DNA from: an uncultured bacterium
GTDB taxonomy: Bacteria > Bacillota_I > Bacilli_A > RFN20 > CAG-826
Length of the DNA: 64,000 nucleotides
Assembly (NCBI GenBank): GCA_949299195.1
Contig: CASFZN010000017.1
Location: 3,714 to 67,713 of the forward strand
Direction of reading: 5' to 3'
Shown: positions 19,459-62,293 of the stretch, piece by piece
Layout: every line of letters begins with the position of its first letter
How positions within the stretch are numbered: position 1 is the stretch's first letter
Translations under genes and position numbers: made by a program
The notes under the pieces: generated by a model
Told to the model about the DNA's origin: nothing
What the model saw: only the letters and a program-made list of their open reading frames with translations
Databases searched by the model: none

Positions 19459-19494
19459 ATTTCTTACTAAGAAATAAATCTTTCCACGTGGAAA
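19459..19494. repeat. Repeat locus A: ATTTCTTACTAAGAAATAA immediately followed by the 14-bp palindrome TTTCCACGTGGAAA
   Basis: Member of the dispersed GTTTCCACGTGGAAAC / CTTACTAAGAAATAA repeat family (see findings). Confidence 0.7.
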
Positions 19495-19640
19495 TATTTT
19501 CTTCCGTATTTTATCGAATTTGTAAGTAAAAATACACTTTATTCTAATCCTAAACTTCTTTAAAAAATTAACAAAAAATTTAAAGCTTAGTAAGAATAAA
19601 AAATAACCGATAATGTTCGGCTATTTTTATGTTAAATATA

Positions 19641-20333
19641 TTAAGGATTAACTTTACTTACCTTTGGCTTTTCAACTAATTTGATGAACTTCTTGTCATC
19701 CATTTCTTTAACGTATCTAACCCTTCTAATTGCAAAATATCCTGTTGGAACAACAAGTAAGGCTAAAACCGCTTCTCCTATCATTCCAAAAAGGGTGACG
19801 GTTCCAAGTCCAACCATAATAAATTGACCAACATTTTTGAATGGATTAAAGAATTCCGAAATTCCTAAAGCAGCAGTAATTCCAAATGGATCTAAAATTC
19901 CAAATAAATATAAACACGAAAGGGTTACAACTGAATGTAAAAGTGATAATCCACAAGCTAAAAATGGCAAAGAAATATAATAAGTTTTTAAGGTAGAATG
20001 TTTTTTAACTACATCAAAAACAAGTCCAGCAACAAGACCAAAAATAGCTCTTGGTAAAATTGAAATAAATGGATTTTGATAGATGATATCAATTGGACCA
20101 GTAGGCATAGTAATTGCTCTAATCATTGAAAATAATCCAAAAACAAAACCATATAATAATCCTCGTTTCCAGCCAAAAATAGCTGCGCCCATTAAAACTA
20201 AAACTGGCATAGTTGTTAAAGTTATAGCGCCTAAAGTAATATAACCCAAATAATTAACAAATGTAAAAAGAACGATTAATGCGATAAAAAGCGCATCAAA
20301 ACTTATTAATCTTAACTTCTCAAGTCTTTCCAT
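19641..20333 (-). CDS. ECF-transporter substrate-specific (S) component, probably for pantothenate given its coaX neighbour
   Basis: Six-helix membrane protein of 230 aa, lying 2 nt downstream of coaX. Confidence 0.5.
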   Translation of the reverse strand: MERLEKLRLISFDALFIALIVLFTFVNYLGYITLGAITLTTMPVLVLMGAAIFGWKRGLLYGFVFGLFSMIRAITMPTGPIDIIYQNPFISILPRAIFGLVAGLVFDVVKKHSTLKTYYISLPFLACGLSLLHSVVTLSCLYLFGILDPFGITAALGISEFFNPFKNVGQFIMVGLGTVTLFGMIGEAVLALLVVPTGYFAIRRVRYVKEMDDKKFIKLVEKPKVSKVNP

Positions 20334-20335
20334 AA

Positions 20336-21232: not shown

Positions 21233-21264
21233 AAAAAATTGAGACGATTAATCAGTCGTCTCAA
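21233..21264 (-). terminator. Rho-independent terminator for the 21248..22030 gene
   Basis: Perfect 9-bp stem TTGAGACGA/TCGTCTCAA with loop TTAATCAG (which contains the stop codon), then TTTTTT on the minus strand. Confidence 0.7.
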
Positions 21265-22030
21265 TTTTAATTGGTTCTTCTTTATCTATTTTCATTTTCT
21301 TTCGAGTTAAGTCTTCATTAAAGAATTTATTAATACCTAAATAGATAAGATACATCGAAGGTAAACCTAAGTTAGTTTCAATTAAACTATTAATTAATAT
21401 AGTTTGGATAGATGCTTCATTAAATGGCCTAATTCCATTAATTAAAAGTGAAAATTCCCAGCAGAATTGAACGCTTATTCCAATTAAGTTTAACAATAAA
21501 ACATTGATCAATTTCTTTTTGGTAAATAAAGAATAGATAATAACAGATAAATAAGAAACTACGAGGAATATCGCCATAAAATAGTGATATTGATTAGTAG
21601 TTCTATAGGTTTGGATGTTATTTTCTCCTCCAGCAACAGTAATTGAAGGTAAAACAAGCCGCCATCCAATAATTAAAGTAAGCCAATATTTTAAATATTC
21701 ATCTTTTCTTAAGCATAACCAGATGAATGCAAAATTAGTTATGCCATAAGATATGCTCATCCATAATAAGACCAAACAAGTATTTAAATTTCCCTGAATT
21801 ACTCCATCAATTGAAACGCTTCTACTACCACTTATTAGATAAAAATATCCATAATCTACGATAAAATAGAGAATTCCTCCAAATAAAGACCAAATGAGTG
21901 TTTGATATCTTTTTTTAAGGATTAATAAAACTAGTAATAAGACTATAAATATCGAATCTAAAATAATATAAAGTAGATTGAAGTTTCGAGTAGGAGTGAT
22001 TACACTCTCTAAAACATTTAATAAATTCAT
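21248..22030 (-). CDS. Hypothetical polytopic membrane protein
   Basis: 260 aa with about 7 hydrophobic segments and no recognisable motif. Confidence 0.45.
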   Translation of the reverse strand: MNLLNVLESVITPTRNFNLLYIILDSIFIVLLLVLLILKKRYQTLIWSLFGGILYFIVDYGYFYLISGSRSVSIDGVIQGNLNTCLVLLWMSISYGITNFAFIWLCLRKDEYLKYWLTLIIGWRLVLPSITVAGGENNIQTYRTTNQYHYFMAIFLVVSYLSVIIYSLFTKKKLINVLLLNLIGISVQFCWEFSLLINGIRPFNEASIQTILINSLIETNLGLPSMYLIYLGINKFFNEDLTRKKMKIDKEEPIKIETTD

Positions 22031-22068
22031 ATAGATAACAACATTTGTTTTTAAACACTTTTTAATAA

Positions 22069-24465: not shown

Positions 24466-24833
24466 TTTCTTCCTCCTTGTTTTAATATAAAAGCGCCCTT
24501 ACTAGAAAAGACACTTTCAAATATCTTTTTTAATAAGGACGCTCAACTTTTAAATTAATTTTATAAGCGCGGTACCACCTTAATTCATCTAATTTATTTC
24601 TTAGTAAGGAATATTTTAATACCTACTAGAATGATAGTAGACTTTAAAGTTTCTACGCGGAAACTTTTTTAATGCTTACTAAGCTTTAAAAGATGCACTT
24701 ATTTATATAGTTTTTACCATACGTGAGACTCTTTTATTAATCTATTAACTTTCACCAACCGTTAACTCTCTAAAAGATTAATTTTTAAAAGATTAATCGT
24801 ACTAGACAATAATTTAACATAAATTTATTAACT
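24466..24833 (-). promoter_or_regulatory. T-box leucine riboswitch leader for leuS
   Basis: The T-box sequence AATTAAGGTGGTACCGCGC is the reverse complement of 24567-24585. The specifier CUC-A is the reverse complement of 24725-24727. Terminator halves AGCGUCCUU and AAGGGCGCUUUU lie at 24489-24545. A candidate promoter, TTGTCT-17-TAAAAT, lies at about 24781-24809. Confidence 0.75.
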
Positions 24834-24855
24834 AAAAAAGGGGAAGTTTATCCCC
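24834..24855 (-). terminator. Rho-independent terminator for glgA
   Basis: Stem GGGGA/TCCCC with loop AGTTTA, then TTTTTT on the minus strand. Confidence 0.6.
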
Positions 24856-24862
24856 ATTTTTA

Positions 24863-28669: not shown

Positions 28670-31600
28670 TTAGTTAAGATTTTGGGAAATTTCTTTAAAT
28701 GTTAGAACATTGCTTGTGTTTTTATTATGTAATACAACTAAAGTCTCATCGACTAGTTCGGAAATATCTGCAACTTTATCGGTAGGACAGGAGATAATGA
28801 CTTGAAGGTTAAACTTTCTTAATAATTTAACTGCTTCTTTAATTCTACCTCTATCCATCTTTGAGAATGCTTCATCGAAGATGATTAATCTTGAAGTATT
28901 AGCAATTTCGCCTTCTTCATTAACGTGATAAAGTTGGGCAAATGAAGCTAATACTGAGATATAGAATGGAGTTTGAGTTTCACCACCACTCTTTTTCTTA
29001 ATCATCTTAGATAATCTTTGTTCTTCGTTATTTTCACGGTTATAGACAATTAAATCGAAGTCTAAATAGGAACGATAATCAGTAAATTTTTCGATATTCT
29101 TCAATAATTCTTCATTATTTTCTTCAAGATTATTAACATCGACTATTTGTTTGAATAAATCTTCCATGACATCTTTATATTTGTCTAAGAAAAGCGATTC
29201 ATCCTCTCCACCTTCTAATATTATATCATCTTTAAGCATATCGTAATATCTTTTGAATGTGATTGAAGGTTTTACAGTGAATCTATAGGAGTCTCTTCCG
29301 AATGAAGATTGTTCGAGTGCTTCATTTAAATTAGAGATTTGATCTTCTACTTCTTCGATTGCACTTCTTAATTTAAAGATAAAGTCGTCTTTAAATTGTT
29401 GAGTTGCTTTTAAATAAGAATCATGAATTTTTTCACGGTATTCTGGGAGTTTTACCTCTTTAAATTCAATTAATTCCTTTTGGAAGACTTCGTTATCTCT
29501 AACATCTGGATCATAAGAAAGATGATAGTCATGGACATATTCCCTTCTTAATTTACATAAACTTGAGAAAAGATTATTTGATAAATATTGAAGTCTCGAT
29601 AAGGAAGAGTTGGCTTCAGTTAAAATATCAAAATATGTACGACCTCTATTAAGTTGTTCATTTAATAAAGGAAGAGCGTAAATATCGACAAAATCTTTAC
29701 TATATTTATCTTTTAAGGCCTCTTTTCTAGCTTCAATTGATTTTTCTTCATTAACAATTTTTTCAGTTTTTAAAGATTCAATTTCATGGGTTAAATTACC
29801 TTTTTCAATTAAAACATCATCTTTTAATTTGGTAATTTCTTTAATATCTTCTTCAACATCTTTAAGGCGTTTATCTAAGCTTTCAAGTAAGGCGGTGTCA
29901 TGGCTTTCAAGTTCACTATTAAAATATTCTAATGAAGAATTTAATCCCTTGAGTTCGTTACCTCTTGAGATAATTTTTAATAGATGTTCAATTTCACCAC
30001 TTGTTAAAACTTCTAAGTTATTAGCTTCGGTAATGGCTCTATAAATAGTTTTATAAACACTTAAATTTTGATTATTTGCTCTTAATTGTGCTTGTTTTTC
30101 TTCAATAAATCTATCATTTATCTTAACTCCGATAAAGGATTCTTGATAAAGTCGAGGATTCATTTTTGTTAACGAGAAAGCGCGATATAAATCACAACTT
30201 CTAGTAATTCCGTTCCCGCTATCTCTAGCTTCTTCAATATCTCCAGCTTTATATAATCTACCAATTAAATAGTTGGTATAAGCTCTTGCTCCTTCATGAG
30301 TTGTTTCAATTTCTTCTGCTAAAGAACCTTCTTCCATATTGAAATTTCTTTCAATAATCTTTTCTTGGTCAACAAGCGCAGTTGCGTAATAATGATATTC
30401 TTCTAAGATTCTTCTTAAAATCTTATAGGCTTCACTATAATATTTTGGTGGAACAAAAAGATTGAATTTTTGATTATATAAATAACCTTCAATAGCATTA
30501 GCCCAAGATTGGTCTTTAATATCAATAAGGTCACAGAATAATTCGACCTCAATTTTTTTATTAAATCTATTTGATAATTCGGTTTGTAAAGCTTCTTTAA
30601 TACTTTTTAATCTATGATCAAAAGATTTAGAACCTTTTTTAACCATTAATTCTTCTTCTTTTAAACTTTGGATTTTCTTTTCTAAGTTAGCGGTAATTCT
30701 TGCTAAAGAGGTAGCTAAACTTGAAACATTATCTTTAAATTCTTTTAATGCATCTTTAAAAGTTTCTAAATCGGTTTTAGAAACAAGCATTAAATCTTCA
30801 TCTAATTTAGTTTTAATTTTAATTGAAACTTCTTTAACCTTTTTACTAGAAAGTATAATATTTAAAATTTCTTCTTCTTTATCTTCATCATTGATTGCAT
30901 CTTTATCAACAGCACTAAGTTCATCAATTAAATTGGTTGCTTCTTCTTCATAAGATTCAATATATTGCATTAAAGTGTCTTTAACGCCATTTAATTCGTT
31001 CTTAATTGCTCTAATTTTTTCTTCAGTATCACGTTTTTGGATATAAATATCTTCAGTGATTTTAGCAACATCATTATTAGTTCGATCTTGAATAAGTTTA
31101 TATTTTCTTTTTTCGAGTTCTTTAATAGTAGCTGCGTGTTCTTCTAATTCACTTTCAATTTCATGAATTCTTTCTTCAGATTTAATAACTTCATTTTTAA
31201 AGGCTTTAACCTTTTCTTCGCTATTAAAAAGTTCGCATCTATCGATAAAATATTTTGAAACATTGAAATCTTTTTCAATGTCTTTATAAGATTCATAAGA
31301 AGTTTTAATCTCTTCAAGTCGCTCGATTCTTCTTTCAATATTTTCACTTTCTAATTTTAATTTAGAATATTGAATAATATTATCTTGAAGATGAGTAAGA
31401 TCTAAATTTTGTTGCGGATCACAGACATATTCAGTAATAAATGTTGTGATATCGGTAATTGGAGTAAAAGATGTTGCTTTCTTTAAAAGTGAAAAATATT
31501 TATCTTTTAAGCCACCAAATCTTCTTTTTAAGAATTCTTGATATTGTTTATTTGAATCAAAAAAGCGATAACTACCAGCATAATTTTCACTTAAATAGGC

Positions 31601-32056
31601 AGCTAAATCCTTATAAGAAAGTGGGACGTTATCAACAATAAATTCATTTTCTGGGATTGGAGCTTCAACGTTAAAGAAGCGATGTTCTTCACTTCCATCA
31701 TCATAAGAATCAAAAACAATTCCCATGGTAAAGTCTTTATTTTCAACATCGTCATGAAATTCTAAAGCGATATAGGAAGTAAATCTTCCATTTCTTAAAT
31801 ATTTAAAGCCACCTTCTTGGTCATCACCAAGTTCACCTCTTAGATAACCTTTTAAAGTTCTAGCGCTTTTATCTAAAGCTGCTTTGTTAAAGCTTCTTCC
31901 ACTTGTATCACCAAGTAAAACAACTTCAAATGCGTCAACAAGAGTGGATTTACCACTACCATTAAGGCCAGTTAAAAATACAATTTGGTCGATATTAAAA
32001 CTTTCATTCCAGAAATAATGCCAGTTAATTAATTTAATCTTCGTTAATAATTTCAT
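28670..32056 (-). CDS. SMC-like ATPase of the MksB/JetC (MukB-like) family
   Basis: N-terminus LINWHYFWNE...FLTGLNGSGKSTL (Walker A), about 900 aa of coiled-coil, then C-terminal SGGETQ signature and Walker B LIIFDEAFSKMD. The start was moved to the ATG at 32056 (SD GTGAGGAAA), which overlaps the end of the upstream gene by 23 nt. Confidence 0.75.
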   Translation of the reverse strand: MKLLTKIKLINWHYFWNESFNIDQIVFLTGLNGSGKSTLVDAFEVVLLGDTSGRSFNKAALDKSARTLKGYLRGELGDDQEGGFKYLRNGRFTSYIALEFHDDVENKDFTMGIVFDSYDDGSEEHRFFNVEAPIPENEFIVDNVPLSYKDLAAYLSENYAGSYRFFDSNKQYQEFLKRRFGGLKDKYFSLLKKATSFTPITDITTFITEYVCDPQQNLDLTHLQDNIIQYSKLKLESENIERRIERLEEIKTSYESYKDIEKDFNVSKYFIDRCELFNSEEKVKAFKNEVIKSEERIHEIESELEEHAATIKELEKRKYKLIQDRTNNDVAKITEDIYIQKRDTEEKIRAIKNELNGVKDTLMQYIESYEEEATNLIDELSAVDKDAINDEDKEEEILNIILSSKKVKEVSIKIKTKLDEDLMLVSKTDLETFKDALKEFKDNVSSLATSLARITANLEKKIQSLKEEELMVKKGSKSFDHRLKSIKEALQTELSNRFNKKIEVELFCDLIDIKDQSWANAIEGYLYNQKFNLFVPPKYYSEAYKILRRILEEYHYYATALVDQEKIIERNFNMEEGSLAEEIETTHEGARAYTNYLIGRLYKAGDIEEARDSGNGITRSCDLYRAFSLTKMNPRLYQESFIGVKINDRFIEEKQAQLRANNQNLSVYKTIYRAITEANNLEVLTSGEIEHLLKIISRGNELKGLNSSLEYFNSELESHDTALLESLDKRLKDVEEDIKEITKLKDDVLIEKGNLTHEIESLKTEKIVNEEKSIEARKEALKDKYSKDFVDIYALPLLNEQLNRGRTYFDILTEANSSLSRLQYLSNNLFSSLCKLRREYVHDYHLSYDPDVRDNEVFQKELIEFKEVKLPEYREKIHDSYLKATQQFKDDFIFKLRSAIEEVEDQISNLNEALEQSSFGRDSYRFTVKPSITFKRYYDMLKDDIILEGGEDESLFLDKYKDVMEDLFKQIVDVNNLEENNEELLKNIEKFTDYRSYLDFDLIVYNRENNEEQRLSKMIKKKSGGETQTPFYISVLASFAQLYHVNEEGEIANTSRLIIFDEAFSKMDRGRIKEAVKLLRKFNLQVIISCPTDKVADISELVDETLVVLHNKNTSNVLTFKEISQNLN

Positions 32057-32681
32057 CGCTAGTTTCCTCACTTTCACTCATTTCTTTATCTAAAGCAAGT
32101 GACATTGCTCTAATTTTTTCATTATCAAGGGCATAACAAATTGAAGGGAGAATATAAAAAGCTACGCTACCTTCATCATAATTTCCGCTAACCTTAGTAA
32201 TAATATTGTGGCTTGCTAAAAGTCTTAAACTTTTAGCGATACCTCTGCCGCTTAATTTCTTTCCAGGCATTAAAATTCCATGTTCAAGCATGGTACGGAT
32301 TAAAACTGGAGTTGTAATATAAATAGATTCTCCAGCTAAATTTGATTCTTTTCTTTCATTTTCATAAATCATTCTTAAAACAAAAAGAATTAAACTTGTT
32401 TCTCTATCAAGACGAATATGGTTTTCGCCACTGAGATTAACTAAACTAACAACTCCTAAAATCTTATCAATTTCAATTGACCAGTTTGAGAAGTTTAAAT
32501 ATTCATTAATTAATTCATAATTTCTTTCAATATATCGATAATCTGGAGAGATTTTAATGATTTTTTCTCTAGGATCAAAGATGTCTCTTACAATAAATCC
32601 TTTTAACAAGATACGGTTTATTGTAGTTCCAAAGGCGTTTTGATCAGAATATGATAATTCGTTATATTTTTCTTCAAACAT
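32034..32681 (-). CDS. MksE/JetB-like (MukE-like, DUF4194-type) subunit
   Basis: 215 aa. Assigned from size and conserved F-E-B gene order; SD AAGGAGA. Confidence 0.45.
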   Translation of the reverse strand: MFEEKYNELSYSDQNAFGTTINRILLKGFIVRDIFDPREKIIKISPDYRYIERNYELINEYLNFSNWSIEIDKILGVVSLVNLSGENHIRLDRETSLILFVLRMIYENERKESNLAGESIYITTPVLIRTMLEHGILMPGKKLSGRGIAKSLRLLASHNIITKVSGNYDEGSVAFYILPSICYALDNEKIRAMSLALDKEMSESEETSDEIINED

Positions 32682-32683
32682 TG

Positions 32684-34126
32684 TTACTTATTCTCCTTTT
32701 CTTTTTCTTTTCTTATAAATGTGACGTTTGGAATTAAGAAATAATTGGTAATAATTCCAGCGTTAGGATAGATTTCATCTATTTTATAGAATGAGTTTTC
32801 ATCTTCACTTTTAACAGTTGCAAGAATTAAGCAGATAAGTTCATCAAAATTTTCAATATTGAAATCTTCGGTAGTAATCTCTCTACTTCTTCCGAATTCT
32901 CTTTCCATAAAGGAATAGATTTTCTCATCAGTATACATATTGGAAGTTTCTTCTAAGAATGATGATTTTAAATAATCATCAATATCAGAGAAGTCTTGAA
33001 TTTCCATTGGTTCTCCAATTTCTTTATATTTACGCATAATTGGTAAAGAAACAGATTCACTATCAAGATAACCTTGTTCATAAAGAGTGAAGGAATCTTG
33101 CATTTTTGATAAGACTTTAGCAAGTTCGCGTGGTTCATTTATCTTATTTGCGTAATGTTTAAAGATATTTTCTAAATGACCTTTAACGGTATGATCAGCG
33201 TTATTTAAATACAAAATCTTTTGAGTTGAAGATTTAGTATAAGCGTTATTTTCTTTATCGATTGAAGCGATTAAAGAATTTAAGGTTTCATAAGTATCAC
33301 TGATATAGTTGATTTTTTCGATAATATCGGCTTCAATTTCTTTTTTGTTATTACTTTTAGAATTGATTGAAGCTTGGAAGATTAATTTTTCTCTAATTTC
33401 TTTGGTTTCTAACCAGTGATTTAAAATCTTAATAATTGGTCTTTTATATTTAGCGACACTATCAAAAGTTTTAAGCGGATGGTAGTATCGATCGGAAATC
33501 TTTCTTTTATAAATATCAAAATAAGAATGTAAAACCTCATTAGTATCGAATAATTTTGATAATTTATTTTGGAAGATTCTAATAGAATGAGTTAAGGTTA
33601 TGAGTTCTACTTTTAACTTTTTAGTATTTTCATAACATCTTAAAAGGGTTGGATAAAGGAGTTCATCCATATCTTCATCTTCTAACTTTAATTCACTATA
33701 AGTAGAGTGAACTAAAGAAATATAAGGAGATTCTTCATCACTTACGATATCACTAAAAGTTTTAAGTAAGGATATTGAATAGGGAGGAAGGATTACTATT
33801 TCTTCATAATTGTCAATATCCATTGAAATATCAATCCATCCACATTCCTCTAATTTTCTTACAATATAAGAAGCTTTTGAGGAATTATTGTAATCGTTTT
33901 TTAAGTTTTCTTTCTCTTCATCGCTTATTTCTTCTTCAGTTAAATCAAGAAGAGATAAATCTTTTTCTCGATCCTTTAAAGCGTTTAAAAAATCAACCTT
34001 TCTAATGAAGGTTTCATCATTTTGAAGTAAAGAATAAAGTATCGATAAACTCTCTATATAAATCTCGCGATTTTTACCTTGAAAAATTGAAAAATAATTT
34101 TGCGGAACTATATTAAATAAATTCAT
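32684..34126 (-). CDS. MksF/JetA-like (MukF-like kleisin, DUF3375-type) subunit
   Basis: 480 aa, first gene of the three-gene operon. Assigned from size and order. Confidence 0.45.
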   Translation of the reverse strand: MNLFNIVPQNYFSIFQGKNREIYIESLSILYSLLQNDETFIRKVDFLNALKDREKDLSLLDLTEEEISDEEKENLKNDYNNSSKASYIVRKLEECGWIDISMDIDNYEEIVILPPYSISLLKTFSDIVSDEESPYISLVHSTYSELKLEDEDMDELLYPTLLRCYENTKKLKVELITLTHSIRIFQNKLSKLFDTNEVLHSYFDIYKRKISDRYYHPLKTFDSVAKYKRPIIKILNHWLETKEIREKLIFQASINSKSNNKKEIEADIIEKINYISDTYETLNSLIASIDKENNAYTKSSTQKILYLNNADHTVKGHLENIFKHYANKINEPRELAKVLSKMQDSFTLYEQGYLDSESVSLPIMRKYKEIGEPMEIQDFSDIDDYLKSSFLEETSNMYTDEKIYSFMEREFGRSREITTEDFNIENFDELICLILATVKSEDENSFYKIDEIYPNAGIITNYFLIPNVTFIRKEKEKENK

Positions 34127-34260: not shown

Positions 34261-34998
34261 TTAAGAATTATTAATAACTTCTTTTACCTTTTCTACCTCT
34301 AAATATTGGAAGGTAACTGAATCTACGAATTTAGTGTATTGAAGTAAGTCTTCTTCGTTTTCAATAGTCCAAGAAAAGATAACTCTTTTTTCTTTTAATG
34401 ATTGATATTTTTTATTCTTAAAATAAGTATATTCTAGATCTAATCCTTCGAATAAGTTTTTAATATGTAAGACATAGCGATGTTTATAATCTGCTAAAAA
34501 TAATCGAATATATCCATATTTTTTAAAAGGAAATAAACAAGAAGGATAAAAAGAAATGATAATGATATTTTCTTTTTTTAAATCTTTTATTAATTCGATT
34601 ACTTTTTGAGCTAATAGTCTACTATTTTTATGCTTTTTACTAGGTTTTAACTCAATAACCATCGGAGTTTCATTGTTATTTATTTCAATAACCTCTTTTA
34701 AAGTAGGAATAGTTTCGCCGTTTTTTAAGCGATAATTATCTTTAATTTCTTTTAAAGTTAATTCTTCAACTTCACCTTCTTTATCAGTTACTCTTTTAGT
34801 TTCACTATCATGAATTACAATTACTTCGTTATCTTTAGATAAATGAACATCAAATTCAAAAGGTAAATTTAAAGAAATTGCTTTTTTAAAACTAGCTAAA
34901 CTGTTTTCAGTTATAGTTTCTTTATCATGGAGTCCTCTATGAGCAACACCTTCAAAAAACTTCGGATTTAATCTAGCTTTTACTTCTTCTTTTTTCAT
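34261..34998 (-). CDS. Glycerophosphodiester phosphodiesterase
   Basis: Motif HRGLH...ENSLASF...FEFDVHLSKDNEVIVIHD; 245 aa. Confidence 0.8.
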   Translation of the reverse strand: MKKEEVKARLNPKFFEGVAHRGLHDKETITENSLASFKKAISLNLPFEFDVHLSKDNEVIVIHDSETKRVTDKEGEVEELTLKEIKDNYRLKNGETIPTLKEVIEINNNETPMVIELKPSKKHKNSRLLAQKVIELIKDLKKENIIIISFYPSCLFPFKKYGYIRLFLADYKHRYVLHIKNLFEGLDLEYTYFKNKKYQSLKEKRVIFSWTIENEEDLLQYTKFVDSVTFQYLEVEKVKEVINNS

Positions 34999-35000
34999 TA

Positions 35001-36434
35001 TTAGTCACCTTGATCCATTGCTTCTAGACCAGTTTTAATTGTAGTTTTATCGATTTTTACGCTCTTAATAAATAAAACGATTATTAAGGAAACAGTTCCA
35101 CAAATTAATGCATAGAAAGGTAAAATTCCAAAATCAAAGCCTTCGATTAACATTAAAGTACCAAGTAACATTGGGGTAATAGTTTGAGCAACCATACTTG
35201 AAGCATAATAATATCCAGTAAAGGCACCGATTTTTTTAGATGAACAAAGCTCAACAACCATTGGATAGGAATTAACATGAACTAAACTCATACCAAATCC
35301 TTTAATAAACCAAATAATATATAAAGCAAATGGGAACTCTCCAACTCCATAAGCAAAACTTGGAGCACATTCACTTAAAATTCCCCAAACAGCATAGGAA
35401 GCAACCGAAAGAGTTAATCCACTAAAAACAGTCCATTTTCTACCGATTTTACCAGCAATAATTCCACCTAAGGCAAAACCAATAACACTACCTACACCAC
35501 CAACAATGGTATTAATCATAGTTCCTTGAGTTGAACCACCTAAATGATAAATTGTGTAGTTAGACATGAAAGTTCCAATTCCGTTATCAGCCATAAACCA
35601 GAAGAATTCAGCTACTAAAATTAAAATTAACATGATTTTATTAGCTTTAGTCATTGGTTTATCATCATCGACTTTATCAGTAATTTCTGCGTATTCTTCA
35701 CCTCTTTTGAGTTCGTCTTTCATTTCTTCAGCAATTTTATTTTCTTTAATTGTGAAAAGTAAGACTAAAGCAGAAACAATCATTAAAATAGACGCAATTA
35801 AAAATGGAGCTTCAATAACCCAAATATTTTGATATGCCCATTCAGCACCTTCATTTAATTTTAAATAATCACTTAAAACAAAGATAATACCGGTAACTGT
35901 CGCAAAAGCGCCACCAATATAACCCATGATATTGATAATTCCATTAGCTTTACTTCTTAAAGGTTTTGGAGTCATATCAGGCATTAAAGAAACTGCAGGG
36001 TTTCGATACATCATCATGAAAATCATGACAATTGCCATCATTACAACAACACCAACCGCATTATTATAATGATATAAAACAGGAATAAATGGGAAAGCTA
36101 CAGCCGAAACAAAGGTTCCTACTAAAATATAAGGCATTCTTTTTCCTAGCGGCGTTTTTGTTTTATCCGATAATTTTCCGAATATTGGTAATAAAATTAA
36201 AGCGGCTAAATTATCTAAAGCCATGACAACACCAACTAAATATTGAACTTGGGTTTCATCATTTACACCAAAAGCTTCACTAAAAAGCGAAGTTAAAAGA
36301 GTTGGACACCGTGAGTCATAGACTTGCCAAAATAAAAGAATTCCAAAGAAAGCGAAACCAATAATAAATGTTCTTTTATAGTTAAGCTTAAATCCTCCAT
36401 CTTTTACCTGAATAGAATTATTTTCTTTTTCCAT
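35001..36434 (-). CDS. MFS-family transporter
   Basis: 12 transmembrane helices. The start was moved to the ATG at 36434 (MEKENN) because the ORF-track start is TTG. Neither candidate has a clear SD. Confidence 0.65.
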   Translation of the reverse strand: MEKENNSIQVKDGGFKLNYKRTFIIGFAFFGILLFWQVYDSRCPTLLTSLFSEAFGVNDETQVQYLVGVVMALDNLAALILLPIFGKLSDKTKTPLGKRMPYILVGTFVSAVAFPFIPVLYHYNNAVGVVVMMAIVMIFMMMYRNPAVSLMPDMTPKPLRSKANGIINIMGYIGGAFATVTGIIFVLSDYLKLNEGAEWAYQNIWVIEAPFLIASILMIVSALVLLFTIKENKIAEEMKDELKRGEEYAEITDKVDDDKPMTKANKIMLILILVAEFFWFMADNGIGTFMSNYTIYHLGGSTQGTMINTIVGGVGSVIGFALGGIIAGKIGRKWTVFSGLTLSVASYAVWGILSECAPSFAYGVGEFPFALYIIWFIKGFGMSLVHVNSYPMVVELCSSKKIGAFTGYYYASSMVAQTITPMLLGTLMLIEGFDFGILPFYALICGTVSLIIVLFIKSVKIDKTTIKTGLEAMDQGD

Positions 36435-36450
36435 AAACAACAATTTAGAT

Positions 36451-37519: not shown

Positions 37520-37605
37520 ATTACTATTTTTTTATTAAAAATAAATAAAAAAACTAATATTGGTAGTTTTCTAGTATACTAGATTTCTACCAGTCAAAAA
37601 TAAAA

Positions 37606-46463: not shown

Positions 46464-47852
46464 GTGAATAAAATTGAATTTTTAAAAGATAGAGTTTATT
46501 TAATTAACGAATCCTTAAAAGGAGCGTATGTTAACAAGATTATTGAAGTTACTTCGAGTGATTTTGAGTTCATTTTTTCGCGTTCTCAATCACCTTCTAT
46601 AATAATTTCGCTTAATTCTTCTTCTCCTTTTATTAAATTAACTAAAGAAAAGTATAAATCCACTCTATCATCATTATTTTTTACTCAACTAAAAAACAAA
46701 TTAATAAATTCCTGTTTTATTGAAGCTTCTTTATATAATGAAGACTCAATTATAGATTTAAAATTTATTAGAACCACAGATACTTACGATAAAATCGAAT
46801 ATCATCTACTTTTTGAAGTCTTTAAAGGCAACACTAATCTTATATTATTAAAAGAAGATAAGATTGATTTAGCTTTTAGATATCATAGTTTAGAAACTTC
46901 ACATCCTTTGATTTTAAATACCATATATTTACCACCTAAAAAGATTGAAATATATAAAGAAATTGATAAAGAAAAGGAAGAATCAAAAGAAAATACTTAT
47001 TTAGATAACTTAAAAACTAAATATTTGACCGAAAAATATAACTCTTTAATCCATCAGCTTAAGAGAAAAAGAAAATCTTTAGAAAATAAAAAAGAAATCT
47101 TAGAAAACGAGATTAAAAAAGCTGAAGAAAACCTTAAATATAAAGAATATGGTGATTATTATCTAACGATAATGGATGAGATTAAAAAAGGGGATACTTC
47201 TTTTACTTATGAAGGAGTTACTATTCCATTAAAAGCTAATTATTCCGTTACCGATAACCTTACTTATTTATATAAAATTTATAAAAAGGCAAAAAATACG
47301 ATCTCTTTAACAAGTAATTTTTTAAATGAAACCATAAATGATCTTTCTTATATTGATTCAATTTTGGCATTGAAAGAAATTTATACTGAAGAAGACTATG
47401 AAATTTTAATTTCTGAACTCAAAAAGAAAAACATTATTAAGATAAAGATGAGATCTAAAGAAAAAGAAATCAAAGCTTCTTTACCATACTATTTTGAATA
47501 TAAAAACGTAAAAATTGGATATGGTAAAAATTCTTTGCAAAATAACGAACTCACCTTCAAAATTGCTAGAAAAACCAATACTTATCTACATATTGCATCA
47601 ACTCATGGATCTCATGTTGTTGTTTTTGATGAACTTGAGAAGATGGATGATGAAGTTTTAGAAGTTGCATTAGAGCTTGTTTTATATCTTTCTAAAAAAG
47701 ATGACGGAGAAGTTTTTGTATCTCCTATTAAAAACGTTAAAAAAGGTAGTTTTTTAGGCGAAACAAACCTTTTAAAATACGAAACATATTACTATAAAGA
47801 TAAAAAATATAATATAAGCCAACTTATTAAGGACTCAAAAAGATTCCAATAG
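46464..47852 (+). CDS. RqcH/FbpA (NFACT) family protein, short form
   Basis: NFACT-N-like N-terminus, a coiled coil, and a NFACT-R/DUF814-like motif ASTHGSHVVV. GTG start; 462 aa against about 570 for B. subtilis RqcH. It is gmk-adjacent, as yloA is in Bacillus. Confidence 0.55.
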   Translation: MNKIEFLKDRVYLINESLKGAYVNKIIEVTSSDFEFIFSRSQSPSIIISLNSSSPFIKLTKEKYKSTLSSLFFTQLKNKLINSCFIEASLYNEDSIIDLKFIRTTDTYDKIEYHLLFEVFKGNTNLILLKEDKIDLAFRYHSLETSHPLILNTIYLPPKKIEIYKEIDKEKEESKENTYLDNLKTKYLTEKYNSLIHQLKRKRKSLENKKEILENEIKKAEENLKYKEYGDYYLTIMDEIKKGDTSFTYEGVTIPLKANYSVTDNLTYLYKIYKKAKNTISLTSNFLNETINDLSYIDSILALKEIYTEEDYEILISELKKKNIIKIKMRSKEKEIKASLPYYFEYKNVKIGYGKNSLQNNELTFKIARKTNTYLHIASTHGSHVVVFDELEKMDDEVLEVALELVLYLSKKDDGEVFVSPIKNVKKGSFLGETNLLKYETYYYKDKKYNISQLIKDSKRFQ

Positions 47853-47969
47853 TTTCCACGTGGAAACTTATAAAAGCGATAAATATCGTTTCTATCAATA
47901 AAAATTATGGCTAATTTCTAGCCATATTTTTTAATGCTTACTTTAATGCTTACTAAGAAATAAAGTAAG
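47852..47969. repeat. Repeat locus C: GTTTCCACGTGGAAAC (47852-47867), then a terminator hairpin, then a tandem AATGCTTACT unit and AATGCTTACTAAGAAATAAAGTAAG (47933-47969)
   Basis: The palindrome begins at the G of the rqcH TAG stop codon. Confidence 0.7.
47907..47932. terminator. Rho-independent terminator between two convergent genes
   Basis: Stem ATGGCTA/TAGCCAT with loop ATTTC, then ATTTTTT; an A-run lies on the other side. Confidence 0.7.
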
Positions 47970-47971: not shown

Positions 47972-48478
47972 TTAAAATATAAAATCTTCACCTTTAATTG
48001 TTTCAACAGTAGCAAGATCAAAGAAATTTCCTTGTCTTAAAGCTTCATATAATACAATCGCTACACAGTTGGATAAGTTTAAACTTCTTGAAGATAGGGT
48101 CATAGGAATTCTTATACATTTATCTAAATGTTCTTTTAAAACTTCTTTAGGAATCCCGGTTGATTCTCTACCAAACATAAAAGAATAGTTTTTAGTAACA
48201 TTGCTATAATCACAAGATGAATATATTTTTTTAGCATATCTAGTTACATAATAGATGTTTTCATCCTTATAAAGTTTTAAAAAATCCTCATAATTATCGT
48301 ATATTTCAATATCAGTAATCGAAATATAATCCATCCCTGCTCTTTTCAAAGCCTTATCATCAAGAGTAAAACTTAAAGGACCTATAATTACTAATTTTGC
48401 ATTGATTGCGCTACATGTTCTAATGATATTTCCTACATTAGAAGGTTTCTCTGGTTGATATAAAATTACCTTATACAT
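47972..48478 (-). CDS. trmL: tRNA (cytidine/uridine-2'-O)-methyltransferase TrmL (SpoU family)
   Basis: Motifs KPSNVGNIIRTC and GRESTGIP; 168 aa. Confidence 0.8.
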   Translation of the reverse strand: MYKVILYQPEKPSNVGNIIRTCSAINAKLVIIGPLSFTLDDKALKRAGMDYISITDIEIYDNYEDFLKLYKDENIYYVTRYAKKIYSSCDYSNVTKNYSFMFGRESTGIPKEVLKEHLDKCIRIPMTLSSRSLNLSNCVAIVLYEALRQGNFFDLATVETIKGEDFIF

Positions 48479-51128: not shown

Positions 51129-53862
<2,734 letters not shown>

Positions 53863-53876
<14 letters not shown>

Positions 53877-55389
53877 TATGTAAATCTAATTCACCTTTAA
53901 ATTCTTCAATAATTTTTCTTAGTTCATCTCTTTGAGGTTTTTTAATGTCTTTTGTTTTGTCAATTTCATCTAATAGTGATTTATAATGAGTAGAAATTCT
54001 TAAATATAATTTCTTTAAAAATGGCTTAATATACGCAATTTCTAAATCATCTAAATATCTATTTTTAGCAGCGAAAAGATAGACTACTTCTTCTAAATAA
54101 GAAAGTGGGGAGTTTTGATTTTGTTTTAAAACTTCCATTAAAGCTTTACCATGTCTGATAATATCCTTTGTATTTTCATCTAAATCACTACCAAATTGAG
54201 TAAATGCTAATAAATCATTAAAGTTAGCAATTTCCATTTTTAAAGATGAAGAAACTTTTTTAACACCTTTAAATTGAGCAGCACTTCCAACACGAGAAAC
54301 TGATAAACCAATATCAATAGCAGGACGTTGCCCAGCATTAAATAAGTCAGTTTTCAAGAAAATTTGACCATCAGTAATTGAGATGACATTAGTAGGAATA
54401 TAACTAGAAATATCTCCAGCTTGAGTTTCAACAATTGGTAAAGCAGTGATACTTCCGCCGCCATTTTTCTCGTTTAATTTAACACATCTTTCTAATAATC
54501 TTGAATGTAAATAGAAGATATCACCTGGATAAGCTTCTCTTCCTGGACTTCTTTTAAGTAATAAGGATAAAGCACGATAACTAACGGCGTGTTTTGATAA
54601 ATCATCAAAAACAATCAAGACGTCTTTTCCTTGTTTACACCAATATTCAGCCATGGTGACACCTGTATAAGGAGCAATATATTGAAGAGGCGAAATCTCT
54701 GAAGCGGTAGCGTTAACTATAACGCTATATTCCATTGATCCGTTTCTTTCTAATTTTTCATAGATTGCTGCAACATTGGCATTTTTTTGACCGATTGCAA
54801 CATAAATACAAATAACATCTCTTCCTTTTTGATTTAAAATTGTATCGATAGCAATCGTTGTTTTTCCAGTTTGTCTATCACCGATCAATAATTCTCTTTG
54901 TCCCTTTCCAATAGGAATCATTGAATCGATTGTTAAAATACCAGTTTCTAAAGGTTCATTAACGCTTTCTCTTGCCATTATTCCAGGAGCAATCTTTTCA
55001 ATAGGTGAAGTTTCTTTATAATCGATTTCTCCTTTTCCATCAATTGGGCGTCCTAAAGCATCAACGACTCTTCCTAAAAGCGCGTCTCCCACAGGACAAG
55101 CGATAACTTCTTTTGTTCTTTTAACCTTATCACCTTCTTTGATGGTGTTAGTGTTTTTAAGTAAAGCTACTAAAACACTATCTTCTTCTAAATTCATGAC
55201 AATTCCATAATCATCATCATTAAAAAGAATTAATTCTCCTAACATTGCTTTTTCAAGTCCATAAATTAAAGCGATGCCATCGCCAATTGTAACGACAGTT
55301 CCAATATCGTTTGATTTTTTAATATCATTTTCAAATTCTTTAATTTCTTCTTTGATTAAAAGCGAGATTTTGTTTGCGTTAATTCCCAT
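53863..55389 (-). CDS. atpA: F0F1 ATP synthase subunit alpha
   Basis: Motif GDRQTGKT; 508 aa. Confidence 0.95.
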
Positions 55390-55392
55390 AAT

Positions 55393-55926
55393 TTATTCCT
55401 TCACCAAGTAATTTTTTAAACTATCTAACTTTGTTTTTATCGATGCATCATAAATATTATTTTTTAAAACTACCTTAAAACCGCCGATTAAATCGGGTTT
55501 TATTACAATATTTAAGTCGATTCTTTTATTCAAATCTTTTTCGATGGTTTCTATTATTTTTTTAATGTCTTCGTCGCTAGGCTTTTTAGCAACATATAAT
55601 GTTCCAGACTCGATATTTAAATAATCATCAAATCGATATAAGGATTCTTTAATAATTTCATACATATAAAAAGATATATTGTTTTTAACAATAACTTTTA
55701 AAAATGAACGTGTATGAGAAGATAAATCTTTAAAACTACGATCAATAAGATCGTATTTTTCATTTAAAGAGATATTTTTGCCATATAAAATTCGTTGATA
55801 TTCTTTATTTTCTTTTAAAACATTTTTTAGAATTTTTAACTCTTCACGGTCATTATTAACGCTTTTTTCTTGTATCGATAAATCTAAAAAAGCTATGGCG
55901 TAACGATTAAAAATATAATTTTCCAT
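55393..55926 (-). CDS. atpH: F0F1 ATP synthase subunit delta
   Basis: Operon position; 177 aa. Confidence 0.8.
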   Translation of the reverse strand: MENYIFNRYAIAFLDLSIQEKSVNNDREELKILKNVLKENKEYQRILYGKNISLNEKYDLIDRSFKDLSSHTRSFLKVIVKNNISFYMYEIIKESLYRFDDYLNIESGTLYVAKKPSDEDIKKIIETIEKDLNKRIDLNIVIKPDLIGGFKVVLKNNIYDASIKTKLDSLKNYLVKE

Positions 55927-59801: not shown

Positions 59802-60927
59802 TCTTCACAAATTTATTAACATATTGAAGATTAAGTGACTTATGAATAACGAGTAATTCATTCATATAAACATTTCTTAAATTCAAATATCTAGCGTATT
59901 CTTCTTCGGTGGCGATTTCTTTATAGAAGGTATTAAAAACACTTTCGAGTCTAAAGAAACTTTCATATAAATTAATCATTGTAATTAGAAAATAATATTC
60001 TCTATTAGAATAGATTAAAAGCGGAGAAGAATGCGCTATTTCACTAGATAATTCATATATTTTAGAATATTTTTTTAATCCAGCCATATTCTCAACGCCA
60101 TCTCTAAAGTTAAGTTTATAATCAACTAAATATTCTTTATCCTTGATTGCAAAAAGATAGCCATATTCGATAAATTTTTTCATATCTTTACTTTTTAAGC
60201 CTTTTTCTTTCATCTTTTCTTTAATCTCGGCGAATATTTCGTCGGTTTTTTCTTTGCTTTTGATTTGGCCTCGATATGCTAAAGAATATTCAATATGTCT
60301 AAAATAGGCATCAAATACATCTTTTCCGTTTAATACTAGTACATATAATATCGATTCATTTTCATGTGTAGTTCTCCAGGTTGAAAAAGCCTCGACATCA
60401 AAACCATTAATTAAAAGATTTTGAATACATTGAGATAAAGAAAATGAATTTTTAAGCATATCTTTAATTAATCTTTGATATTTATCGTATTCAACGTTTT
60501 GGCGGTTAAGGATGTTTAAACAGAAGTTCAAATATAAGGCCATGGTTGAAATTTGAGGATTAAATTTATTTAAATATGCTTGAGATTTATAGTTTAATTG
60601 TTCATTTGTAAGATATTTATCGCAAATAACTGAACATAAATAATGATAAAAATCCTCATCCTGAAGCATTTTTTCAATACTTACTTTCTCTCCCCATCTA
60701 ATTGAATGAGCAAACTTAATTTCATTTAAAATATATAAAAGAACAACGATTGGATTAACAAAGTTAAACTCTTTAAATTCACTTTGTTTTAAAACAGTTT
60801 CAATCGCTTCAGTAACTGTTTCATATATGTCATATAAAAGATCGCTAGAATCTAAAAAATCTTGTTCTACATTAAGTCTTTTTAAGGTGCTATCGAATTG
60901 AGGTTTATTTATCTTCATTACGTTCAT
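59764..60927 (-). CDS. Hypothetical protein
   Basis: 387-aa ORF. It overlaps the udk 3' end convergently by 38 nt and has no recognisable motif. Confidence 0.4.
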   Translation of the reverse strand: MNVMKINKPQFDSTLKRLNVEQDFLDSSDLLYDIYETVTEAIETVLKQSEFKEFNFVNPIVVLLYILNEIKFAHSIRWGEKVSIEKMLQDEDFYHYLCSVICDKYLTNEQLNYKSQAYLNKFNPQISTMALYLNFCLNILNRQNVEYDKYQRLIKDMLKNSFSLSQCIQNLLINGFDVEAFSTWRTTHENESILYVLVLNGKDVFDAYFRHIEYSLAYRGQIKSKEKTDEIFAEIKEKMKEKGLKSKDMKKFIEYGYLFAIKDKEYLVDYKLNFRDGVENMAGLKKYSKIYELSSEIAHSSPLLIYSNREYYFLITMINLYESFFRLESVFNTFYKEIATEEEYARYLNLRNVYMNELLVIHKSLNLQYVNKFVKIKTQHHDNKNPQ

Positions 60928-60964
60928 AGTATCTATTATTTTATAATAGTTTAATTATTTTTGC

Positions 60965-62293
60965 TTATACTTTTAGATTTAAATAAAAAAGGGATGAAAT
61001 AGAGTGTAATTTTCCTTCAATTTGTAGAGGATATTTTACTCTCTTATCCAGTAAGATAACCGTTTCTTTAGCTTTTTCTTTAATTTTAGTTAAAACAACA
61101 TAATTTTCTTTTAAAATTTCAAAAAGCAGCGCATTATCAATCTTATCTTTATTTTCATAAATAGTAGGAATAATAACAATTTCATCAGTTTCTTTAATTT
61201 CATTTAAATGTGAGAAATCATCGATAGTTATCTTTGATTTATTATCCATTAAAACAGAAAAAGTCATCATCGATAAATAAAAAATAAATAAATTTATAGA
61301 TGTTAAATTATAATGAGGATTCTTTTTTAATGAATCTTTAAAAAATTCGATAAAATCCTTTTCTTTTTTATGCTTACTAAGAAATAAGTAAGGTTTATTT
61401 TCATTGTCTTCTTTCTTATTTTCTAAAAAGATTTTAAGGACTTTTTTATAGTTTTTCCTATCACATTTTCTTAAAATTGAACGTAATAAAATAAATGAGT
61501 TTAATTCAATAAATCGACAAGAATCATTAAAATTAGTTTCCACGTGGAAACTTTTTTCAAATTCTAATGCTTTCTGCATCTCTTTCGTCGACTCAAAAAG
61601 AAATAAAACATTCTTTCCGCCACTATTTACTTTGGAAATTGTATTTTTAATAAAATAAATTACGCACTCGATTTTAAGATCGACTTCTTCTATTTTTATA
61701 TCTTTTAAATAATCTCCAAAAAAGATATCTTCTAAAACAATATCTTTGTTATTTTTTATATTTTTTGTATATGTTTGAAGAATTATATTTAAGTTTAAAA
61801 TTTTTCTTAAAGTTGAAACATTTTTAAAATTATTTATCGTTGCTGAAAGATAAGAAAATAAAGGGAGATTGCTTTTAAAAGGTAAAAACTTTTGATATTG
61901 GTATTTATATAAAAAATTGATAATGATGCACTTTTTTCGATCATTATCTTTAACATCTTTTTTTATTATCTTAAATGTTTCTTTATAAAATAAAGATTTT
62001 AATCTTTTGTATCTATCTAAATACTTATTTTTGGTGTTTTTATCTTCAATTTCATCGATTATTCTTTTAATTATTAGTAAAATTCTATTTTTCTTATTAT
62101 CTTTAAAGTTTTCAATTGTTGCTAATTCACTAAAAATTAATTCTAAATATCTCGTTGAATATACGATTTCATGTTTTTTAGTAAGGGATACTTCTTCTAA
62201 TTCAATATCATAAATTTTAAGCTCATTTAGGCTCATTAAATATTGTCGAATTAATTTAAAATCCGTTTCAACTTTATATATTTTTAGCATCAA
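60965..62293 (-). CDS. Hypothetical K/N/I-rich protein that contains both repeat-family units in frame
   Basis: 442-aa uninterrupted ORF. The codons for LFLSKHKKEK and EKSFHVETN are encoded by the repeat units. Confidence 0.4.
   Translation of the reverse strand: MMLKIYKVETDFKLIRQYLMSLNELKIYDIELEEVSLTKKHEIVYSTRYLELIFSELATIENFKDNKKNRILLIIKRIIDEIEDKNTKNKYLDRYKRLKSLFYKETFKIIKKDVKDNDRKKCIIINFLYKYQYQKFLPFKSNLPLFSYLSATINNFKNVSTLRKILNLNIILQTYTKNIKNNKDIVLEDIFFGDYLKDIKIEEVDLKIECVIYFIKNTISKVNSGGKNVLFLFESTKEMQKALEFEKSFHVETNFNDSCRFIELNSFILLRSILRKCDRKNYKKVLKIFLENKKEDNENKPYLFLSKHKKEKDFIEFFKDSLKKNPHYNLTSINLFIFYLSMMTFSVLMDNKSKITIDDFSHLNEIKETDEIVIIPTIYENKDKIDNALLFEILKENYVVLTKIKEKAKETVILLDKRVKYPLQIEGKLHSISSLFYLNLKV
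61369..61557. repeat. Repeat locus D: ATGCTTACTAAGAAATAAGTAAGG (61370-61393) and GTTTCCACGTGGAAAC plus TTTTTT (61536-61557), inside the 442-aa ORF
   Basis: Same units as loci A-C. The spacing is about 145 bp. Confidence 0.7.

Follow-up and report, generated by a model that had tools for sequence, protein, structure and literature searches.

What is a perfect 16-base palindrome doing at scattered positions in a very AT-rich bacterial genome? We analyzed a window of 64,000 nucleotides from an uncultured bacterium of the Bacilli_A lineage (contig CASFZN010000017.1, positions 3,714 to 67,713), in which this palindrome, P1 (GTTTCCACGTGGAAAC), occurs along with a second conserved motif, P2. An initial annotation had taken the two for a composite repeat, either a REP/MITE-like family (repetitive extragenic palindromes or miniature inverted-repeat transposable elements) or a small structured-RNA family, rather than an operator. 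Our analysis turns this interpretation around: P1 is best interpreted as a parS variant (parS being the site bound by ParB) that is embedded in short lineage-specific mosaic modules. From the sequences, we think that the P1 copies are probably parS-type binding sites for a ParB-family protein and that they were brought in with lineage-specific DNA as parts of these modules.

We refer to the five repeat loci in the window as L1 to L5 and to contigs or loci from public assemblies as L001 and so on. P1 is exact at 37606, 47852, and 61536, and the two inexact copies (19480 and 24649) match at 14 of 16 positions. This agrees with the sequences in the initial annotation, which gave the first of the inexact copies as a 14-bp core at 19481. 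The copies are as follows.

19480-19495 (L1), no strand: P1 copy CTTTCCACGTGGAAAT; the 14-bp core (19481-19494) is intact and the outermost pair alone differs
24649-24664 (L2), no strand: P1 variant GTTTCTACGCGGAAAC, with two mismatches in the core; inside the leuS T-box leader
37606-37621 (L3), no strand: exact GTTTCCACGTGGAAAC, within a 24-bp perfect palindrome (37602-37625)
47852-47867 (L4), no strand: exact P1, which starts on the last base (G) of the TAG codon that ends the NFACT/RqcH gene (plus strand, 46464-47852)
61536-61551 (L5), no strand: exact P1, inside a 442-aa open reading frame (ORF; minus strand, 60965-62293), where it encodes S-F-H-V-E-T

The variant at 24649 is probably a decayed or non-binding copy. 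If up to two mismatches are allowed, the window has five matches to P1, spread over 42 kb, versus 0.01 expected, and none of 100 shuffled sequences reached five. The core of P2 has six matches versus 0.5 expected, and P1 and P2 are the most over-represented long words of the window. These copy statistics exclude a chance origin for either motif, as the initial annotation had argued. Isolated half-sites are present at the chance level, and there is no canonical parS in the window. We assembled about 75 kb for the species (the window extended by 7.2 kb to the right and 3.7 kb to the left), and the flanking extensions contain no further copies of P1 or P2.

P1 is placed without regard to gene structure: its copies lie in a promoter-proximal spacer, in the 5' leader of a T-box-regulated gene, in the gap between two convergent genes, across a stop codon, and in the interior of an ORF. 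Such placement is usual for parS sites but not for terminators or REPs. Chromosomal parS sites likewise come in a few clustered copies, in both coding and non-coding DNA, and across the ~75 kb the P1 sites are few, clustered, and positioned irrespective of gene boundaries.

P1 also resembles parS in sequence. Like the chromosomal sites that are bound by ParB/Spo0J (TGTTNCACGTGAAACA in B. subtilis; TGTTCCACGTGGAAC(A/G) in P. aeruginosa, P. putida, and M. xanthus), it is perfectly palindromic over 16 bp and has CG at its center. Its central 12 bp are identical to those of the Pseudomonas/Myxococcus site (TGTTCCACGTGGAACA), and the identity across the whole site is 12/16. The differences between P1 and canonical TGTTNCACGTGAAACA are confined to the outer two positions of each arm, where P1 has GT..AC (positions 1-2 and 15-16) in place of TG..CA, so that the conserved G at position 2 (C at position 15) is replaced. 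This change has been reported not to be tolerated by canonical ParBs (Jalal et al. 2020; PMC5450999). We describe the resulting variant class as GTTTYCACGTGRAAAC. The outer GTTT..AAAC of P1 is that of the Burkholderia chromosome II parS (gTTTATGCGCATAAAc), one of the Bsr sites of secondary replicons in the Burkholderiales, and these sites share with P1 the 16-bp palindrome, the T-rich 5' arm that starts with GTTT, and a 6-bp core with a central CG. However, the core of P1 is CCACGTGG, the chromosomal type, and not ATGCGCAT. Overall, a perfect 16-bp palindrome with a central CG, T-rich arms, and 12 shared bp fits the architecture of the parS family. In the searchable literature, neither P1 nor any other string of the variant class turned up in connection with parS.

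In other phyla, exact P1 sits beside parAB. We collected at least 166 loci with exact P1, at least 103 of them from GTDB species genomes and 63 from JGI metagenomes (scanned with a TTT-flanked pattern), and we searched them for parAB by using tblastn with B. subtilis Soj and Spo0J as queries, followed by validation with Pfam. Chromosomal-type parA and/or parB, usually the whole parA-parB operon, was present at 53 of the 166 listed loci; a random 8-kb locus would hold parAB about 0.2% of the time. At the listed loci, the Soj proteins are 54–62% identical to that of B. subtilis, which again sets them apart from the plasmid-like proteins of the Bsr systems, and Pfam identifies ParA along with the ParB_N, HTH_ParB, and ParB_C domains. 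The nearest P1 is 4–624 bp upstream of parA (median 55 bp), and the distance is at most 500 bp in 49 of the 50 listed loci with parA. As with chromosomal parS, some of these loci lie in the parAB/oriC neighborhood: the gene order is gyrB-dnaN-dnaA...yidC-P1-parA-parB in L171 and yidC-jag-P1-P1-parA-parB in L119. The listed P1-parAB loci L004–L105 are from Omnitrophota, Planctomycetota, and Elusimicrobiota. If unassigned metagenome contigs are included, the phenomenon spans L004–L175, and it looks like a distinct ParB/parS specificity class. Examples of parAB promoter regions with GTTTYCACGTGRAAAC instead of canonical parS are L171:4217, L119:3894 and 4766, L036:4500, and L032:184.

The ParB proteins beside these sites have changed as well. 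All of the parS-like sites in the listed P1-parAB loci are of the form GTTTYCACGTGRAAAC, with the C/T wobble at position 5 that is tolerated in parS, and none is of the form TGTT..AACA. The adjacent ParBs carry the motif GKDK[ST]T[IV]SN, which has Lys at the position of R173 in Caulobacter (GKSR in Spo0J) in 39 of the 40 listed proteins, and the motif is GKSK in two plasmid-like ParBs. R173 is reported not to vary among ParBs that are specific for parS and to contact guanine 1 of the half-site, while in Noc a Gln reads adenine 1 (Jalal et al. 2020). P1 has T at the guanine-1 position and a G one step further out. Because Lys replaces Arg173 in the ParBs that lie beside sites without guanine 1, protein and site co-vary, and P1 appears to represent a coherent variant class of parS with a matching change in its reader. 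The proximity to parAB, the documented parS core, and this covariation point to a type of protein-binding site, which is the outcome that the initial annotation had named as refuting its repeat family.

Exact P1 also occurs in a related species (79% LeuRS identity), at a non-orthologous place after metK (L054); by calculation, about 7e-5 copies would be expected per 1.7-Mb genome of such composition. In the relative that carries this site, priA contains TGTTTCACGTGAAAAC, and GTTTTCACGTATAAAC lies upstream of rpmB (0.01 expected). A parS-like site is present at the same position of priA in two relatives (L186:10642-10657 and L187:10636-10651; TGTTTCACGTGAAAAC and CTTCTCACGTGAAAAC). TGTTTCACGTGAAAAC is a hybrid in which a canonical arm is paired with a GT-type arm. 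The priA site has been lost from the window species.

Within the species, seven strain contigs cover L4, two of which reach L3, and we used L001 at L1 and L002 at L2. P1 and P2 at L4 are unchanged in all seven contigs, as is P1 at L3 in both of the contigs that reach it, despite single-nucleotide polymorphisms in the flanks. There is no presence/absence polymorphism of P1 or P2 sites among the strains. Where strains do differ inside a P1 copy (at L1 and L2), only the outermost base pair is affected. Strain L001 (14971-14986) reads GTTTCCACGTGGAAAG on the gene-coding strand, with the polymorphism confined to distal positions, and strain L002 (9619-9634) reads TTTTCCGCGTAGAAAA on the minus strand, a symmetric change of the outermost pair from G..C to T..A that keeps the dyad. 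This is a further feature shared with the Bsr sites: the outermost (1-16) pair was the most tolerant of substitution in five of the six parS sites tested (PMC5450999). The exact P1 in another species and the restriction of strain variation to the outermost pair fit a trans-acting reader. A parS-type site explains the three exact 16-mers in the window, the exact copy in L054, the priA and rpmB sites of that relative, the placement of the copies, and the variation in the outermost pair.

If P1 acts as parS does, then it would be a 16-bp dyad for a dimer of a ParB-family protein, which could be ParB/Spo0J or possibly a Noc-like paralogue, with each helix-turn-helix reading one 8-bp arm. From established ParB biology, binding to the site would lead to CTP-dependent closure of the clamp, and the clamps would slide onto the flanking DNA to form a partition complex that is moved by ParA and that loads SMC. 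The 42-kb cluster in the window would then comprise five sites, of which three are perfect, one is nearly so, and one has decayed, and they would have arrived with lineage-specific DNA, in short mosaic modules that also carry the species-specific P2. The ParB-family protein that would bind P1 in the window organism is predicted from these sites. The sites would in turn predict where ParB is loaded in this organism, and hence roughly where the origin domain is.

Several observations weigh against this reading. The ~75 kb of the species contains no parA, parB, noc, or dnaA gene. The documented P1-parAB pairs and Lys-type ParBs are all from other phyla, and the Firmicutes ParBs that have been characterized so far carry Arg and bind TGTT-type sites (Jalal et al. 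2020). The clustering of P1 is marginal: all five sites fall within 42 kb, and the 33 kb of flanks has none (P ~0.055, calculated). In three related species, 22 kb of the orthologous region is devoid of P1-like sites. The copy at 37606 and the copy after metK in L054 are described equally well as terminators. Finally, chromosomal parS sites differ from those in the window in that the latter are linked to a second motif (6/6 copies of P2) and all lie in lineage-specific DNA, which a simple parS model does not predict and which points to a mobile or duplicative origin.

P2 has as its core a 9-bp palindrome, CTTASTAAG, with a run of T before it and AAATAA or CTTTAAA after it. All six matches to the core in the window are at the P1/P2 loci (four of them); the longer GCTTASTAAG has five matches versus 0.19 expected, and CTTACTAAGAAATAA is exact at 19463, 24594 (minus strand), 47949, and 61373. 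The second unit in the initial annotation is therefore real, including its tandem AATGCTTACT at 47933/47945. A hidden Markov model built from the six copies found no additional copy in the 64 kb. Every copy of P2 lies within 170 bp of a P1, and the gap between the two ranges from 0 to 143 nt. The composite was described at five loci and holds up at four, as no P2 lies within 200 bp of the P1 at 37606. The P2 copies, with a degenerate one in the last line, are:

19456-19478 (L1), no strand: 23-bp palindrome TTTATTTCTTAcTAAGAAATAAA, which directly abuts P1
19585-19603 (L1b), plus strand: GCTTAGTAAGAATAAAAAA, inverted relative to 19463; the pair brackets P1 (132 nt)
24591-24609 (L2a), minus strand: the minus strand reads CCTTACTAAGAAATAAA
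24665-24684 (L2b), plus strand: TTTTTTAATGCTTACTAAGC, immediately after the P1 variant
47927-47969 (L4), plus strand: TTTTTTAATGCTTACT-TTAATGCTTACTAAGAAATAAAGTAAG, containing the tandem AATGCTTACT
61364-61393 (L5), plus strand: TTTTTTATGCTTACTAAGAAATAAGTAAGG, inside the 442-aa ORF, 143 nt from P1
61566-61575 (L5), plus strand: degenerate P2, AATGCTTTCT, after P1 and TTTTTT

The copy at 19456-19478 folds as single-stranded DNA at -6.1 kcal/mol (z = -5.2). At L2, the 9-mer of L2a is the exact inverted partner of 24675-24683, and the pair closes an 84-nt module that holds the P1 variant. At both L1 and L2, one P2 of each 3' flavor (AAATAA and CTTTAAA), in inverted orientation, brackets P1; these inverted repeats are 9–16 nt long and enclose no common internal sequence. 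The T-run before P2 comes twice from an unrelated terminator and once from the P1 hairpin. The L1b copy directly follows the terminator of the ECF-S gene (19599-19628, minus strand), and the L4 copy directly follows a bidirectional terminator (47906-47926) and abuts the stop codon of the SpoU methylase gene (minus strand, 47972-48478). A unit of P1, 6–10 T-rich nt, and CTTASTAAG is recognizable at L1 and L2, has a 59-nt insertion at L4, and is degenerate at L5. Otherwise, the blocks shared between loci are limited to ~24 nt around P1 and ~25–33 nt around P2: neither a repeat search nor pairwise local alignments of the five loci on both strands found a longer common element. P2 is absent from the related species and was not found near P1 in any other lineage checked.

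What, then, is P2? Most likely it is a hitch-hiking or inverted-repeat part of a duplicated module; a second protein-binding site is less likely. The centromere of phage/plasmid P1 does combine two different short motifs, as the window loci do. It is bipartite, with ParB box A and box B around an IHF site in a fixed spacing and orientation. In the window, by contrast, the gap is 0–143 nt, the orientations are mixed, and one palindrome has no P2, nor do the palindromes in other lineages. Other candidates for P2 were rejected. A promoter finds no support, as the copies share no convincing -35/-10 arrangement, and neither does a mini-ORF (MLTKK*), as there is no ribosome-binding site and three copies have no ATG. 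A relic of the 442-aa gene or of the neighboring DUF5677 gene is likewise unsupported: the two proteins are dissimilar, and the 442-aa ORF is an ORFan. A phage origin for P1 and P2 was rejected as well, with one match each for the P1 and P2 18-mers in scans of viral contigs.

To place these loci in evolutionary context, we compared the window with four related species (L107, L109/L186, L110, and L187), whose LeuRS and PriA proteins are 75–81% and 51–63% identical, respectively, to those of the window species and to one another, so the species are roughly equidistant. All five P1/P2 loci lie in segments that are absent from all four relatives. The initial annotation had proposed such a comparison for presence or absence, and the difference that it looked for is there. 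The surroundings of the five loci are as follows.

19456-19603 (L1), in minus-strand order: the ECF-S terminator, inverted P2, 90 nt, P1, and the palindromic P2 abutting P1; the gene that starts ~55 nt downstream of P1, and ~30 nt past the end of the palindromic P2, encodes a 238-aa membrane protein (minus strand, 18710-19426)
24591-24684 (L2): an 84-nt block between two inverted CTTASTAAG, holding the degenerate P1 and another hairpin
24466-24862, minus strand: the leuS T-box leader that hosts L2 (Rfam T-box, 45.4 bits, E = 1e-8)
37602-37625 (L3): a bidirectional terminator-like hairpin between convergent rpmB (plus strand, 37288-37479) and a 218-aa membrane-protein gene (minus strand, 37651-38307)
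47852-47969 (L4): P1 and P2 with the separate bidirectional terminator (47906-47926) between them, 40 nt from P1, which has no T-run here
60965-62293 (L5), minus strand: the intact 442-aa ORF, with both P1 and P2 inside it

At L1, in relatives L107, L109, and L110, the ECF-S gene abuts an M20 peptidase gene, and the 238-aa gene and the spacer are absent. The leuS leader is ~170 nt longer than in three related species, and by alignment ~100 nt of the excess is the block of P2b, P1 variant, hairpin, and P2a at L2. Relative to those leaders, there are three expansions in all: the ~100-nt P2-P1-P2 block and smaller ones in the antiterminator region (~19 nt) and the terminator loop (~27 nt). At L3, the relatives have ordinary, unrelated terminators at the rpmB junction. 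At L4, the SpoU and NFACT genes of the relatives overlap convergently, so the entire 119-nt spacer is lineage-specific. At L5, glpK abuts the DUF5677 gene in L187, with no 442-aa ORF. Other lineage-specific insertions lie near P1 sites: the 238-aa membrane-protein gene itself (18710-19426), a 260-aa gene between leuS and coaX (21248-22030), and a HAD-MFS-GDPD block between rpmB and jetA (34261-37089), all of which are absent in the related species.

Much of this evidence is also what one would expect if P1 and P2 together were a mosaic repeat, akin to a bacterial interspersed mosaic element (BIME) of REPs or to a MITE, that spreads by a transposase-like or recombinational mechanism and resembles parS without any role in partitioning. 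E. coli BIMEs, the Correia elements of Neisseria, the pneumococcal BOX and RUP elements, and the RPE of Rickettsia consist of short palindromic units in mosaic orders and orientations, as P1 and P2 do; they vary in presence between related genomes, some of their copies double as terminators, and RPE occur within ORFs. The absence of every copy from the four relatives, the inverted CTTASTAAG pairs around P1 at L1 and L2, the ~100-nt insertion in the T-box leader, the BIME-like variety of orders and orientations, and the restriction of P2 to this species all agree with such an origin. But P1 is not restricted to the species, and its identity across phyla and its tie to parAB are unlike any REP or MITE. 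The copy number is very low (five P1 and six P2 in ~75 kb, all of them outside the 33 kb of flanks), where such families have many copies. Two units lie inside the intact 442-aa ORF and one overlaps a stop codon, so the units are not all extragenic. Nothing is shared outside of the two short blocks, there is no extended consensus and no target-site duplication, and the units follow no consistent order or orientation from locus to locus, with opposite topology at L1 and L2. Finally, neither the ORFs of at least 100 aa near the loci (by Pfam) nor the gene lists of the strain contigs include a transposase or RAYT-like gene, although the ORFs at 53010-55926 (the ATP-synthase block) were not scanned directly. 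We therefore consider a pure selfish repeat to be unlikely, as it leaves the cross-phylum identity of P1 unaccounted for. The dispersed, co-occurring palindromic units of the initial annotation stand, as does their absence in relatives; "rather than an operator" does not, given that P1 is upstream of parAB elsewhere. Because of the regularities of P2 together with the insertion evidence, the results support its picture of a mosaic REP/BIME-like module as the vehicle of the sites. A small structured-RNA family, its other suggestion, finds no backing in Rfam, which matches none of the loci except through the T-box: the gathering score was reached by only two tRNAs in the window, and an E-value threshold adds only the leuS T-box, whose 45.4 bits are under the gathering score of 93.

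Could P1 simply be a recurrent intrinsic-terminator hairpin, with P2 as a terminator-adjacent sequence? The hairpin at 37602-37625 scans as a bidirectional terminator, and this P1 copy is probably also the terminator of the adjacent gene; in L054, P1 and a T-run sit between the metK stop codon and the hpf promoter; and copies of P2 come after T-runs, two of them after unrelated terminators. However, the copy at 37606 is the sole one of the five in the window to score in the terminator scan, so the initial annotation's reading of the palindrome plus T-run as a terminator survives at that copy and fails at the other four. L1 lies 5' of its gene. L2 is upstream of the T-box's own terminator and has no U-run in the RNA sense, L4 has a proper terminator of its own, and L5 is within an ORF; the T-runs that follow the copies at 24649 and 61536 lie antisense to the genes. 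The stem folds weakly as DNA (-4.7 kcal/mol), the other terminators in the window have unrelated stems, and a hairpin would not need to be identical at 16 of 16 positions across species and phyla. As a general account of P1, this explanation is very improbable. A better, but still improbable, alternative is that P1 is bound by a Noc-like or other non-partition paralogue of ParB, or by an unrelated dimeric factor that recognizes a CACGTG core, and that it is a regulatory or nucleoid-occlusion site. In favor of this, the Noc-binding site (NBS; ATTTCCCGGGAAAT) is a ParB-family dyad of Firmicutes, and its outer TTTCC..GGAAA is common to P1. The local density of P1 (about one site per 10–13 kb) exceeds that of many parS sets. 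Noc itself is confined to Firmicutes (Jalal et al. 2020). A conventional operator would fit L1 only, where P1 is just upstream of a gene start, and P1 is promoter-proximal in just this one of five copies. The core of P1 is CACGTG, with A at position 6, whereas that of the NBS is CCCGGG, and if the outer parts are aligned then P1 is 2 bp longer; if the centers are aligned, each arm of P1 matches parS at 6/8 positions and the NBS at 4/8. NBS sites are dispersed around the chromosome but avoid the terminus, and our view of P1 spans 75 kb. The A at position 6 goes with Gly201, as in ParB, and not with Arg, as in Noc. P1 also lies beside parAB in phyla without Noc.

Returning to P1 as a variant parS, a bolder and quite tentative proposal is that the Lys-type ParBs (GKDK[ST]T) and GTTTYCACGTGRAAAC form a third DNA-specificity class in the ParB/Noc family, beside Arg with parS and Gln with NBS, and that in the window organism its sites were seeded to new positions on P2-bounded mosaic modules. 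Having been placed in a T-box leader, at a gene junction, and inside an ORF in this way, they would be what may be called portable centromere sites. parS is usually treated as a near-invariant sequence and used as a marker of bacterial chromosomes. If a variant class with a replaced base-reading Arg exists, then it would be a natural case of specificity switching in the ParB/Noc family, and annotation of parS and origins by motif would miss the lineages that have it. The restriction of the window sites to lineage-specific DNA and their link to P2 also raise the question of how new centromere-like sites originate and spread in a very AT-rich genome, where an origin by point mutation is implausible for a 16-mer with 50% GC.

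Two groups of metagenome contigs carry related palindromes. Ten AT-rich contigs (L113, L114, L120, L122, L127, L130, L131, L156, L161, and L164; mostly JGI Ga0302238) carry ATTTCACTCAAAGTTTCCACGTGGAAACAAGGTGTGAAAT, and eight of the ten end within ~70 nt of the site. L130 and L161 encode divergent ParA-like and ParB-like proteins (with the GKSK motif) several kb from ATTTCACTCAAAGTTTCCACGTGGAAACAAGGTGTGAAAT. These contigs could show the end or the centromere of a plasmid- or phage-like replicon. In eight contigs with 65–69% GC (L117, L132, L143, L147, L151, L162, L163, and L166), P1 lies within a 28–30-bp AT-rich perfect palindrome, TGTAAAAGTTTCCACGTGGAAACTTTTACA. parAB was not detected in these eight short loci; L145, which is similar in composition, has a ParB-like gene beside the site. 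Independent assemblies also break at common places: L178 ends 83 nt past the 37606-type P1, and the left ends of L188 and L190 are within ~70 nt of each other, which hints at assembly trouble caused by the palindrome or by a repeat just beyond the contig.

The initial annotation had placed four of the loci at gene 3' ends or in intergenic DNA. At 61 kb, P1 and P2 are 143 nt apart, and both are within a gene. Its 442-aa ORFan (24% GC) lies between glpK and the DUF5677 gene and has no homologue outside the species; by calculation, the chance that an ORF of this length stays open in DNA with 24% GC is ~1e-18. The strains differ in it by two synonymous changes, five non-synonymous changes, and one 3-nt indel at the start codon. 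The 442-aa, 260-aa, and 218-aa proteins have no match in Pfam, NCBIfam, or PADLOC, and the 238-aa protein has a weak match to the MAGa3780 family and nothing else.

The window has 28% GC, uses the standard genetic code, and carries genes that are typical of Bacillota (leuS with a T-box leader, parts of ECF transporters, RqcH/NFACT, PrkC/PrpC, PriA, and an atp operon). The window sequence is also contained in ENA, Logan, and NCBI metagenome assemblies, and PriA homologues at a greater distance are labeled by their sources as Bacilli, Candidatus Onthovivens, or Erysipelotrichaceae. The window also encodes a Wadjet/MksBEF-like SMC complex, jetA-jetB-jetC (28670-34126, minus strand), amid the P1 cluster, with no adjacent jetD and with glgC directly after it. 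All four related species retain the three genes beside rpmB, which suggests that they encode a housekeeping condensin rather than a mobile defense island.

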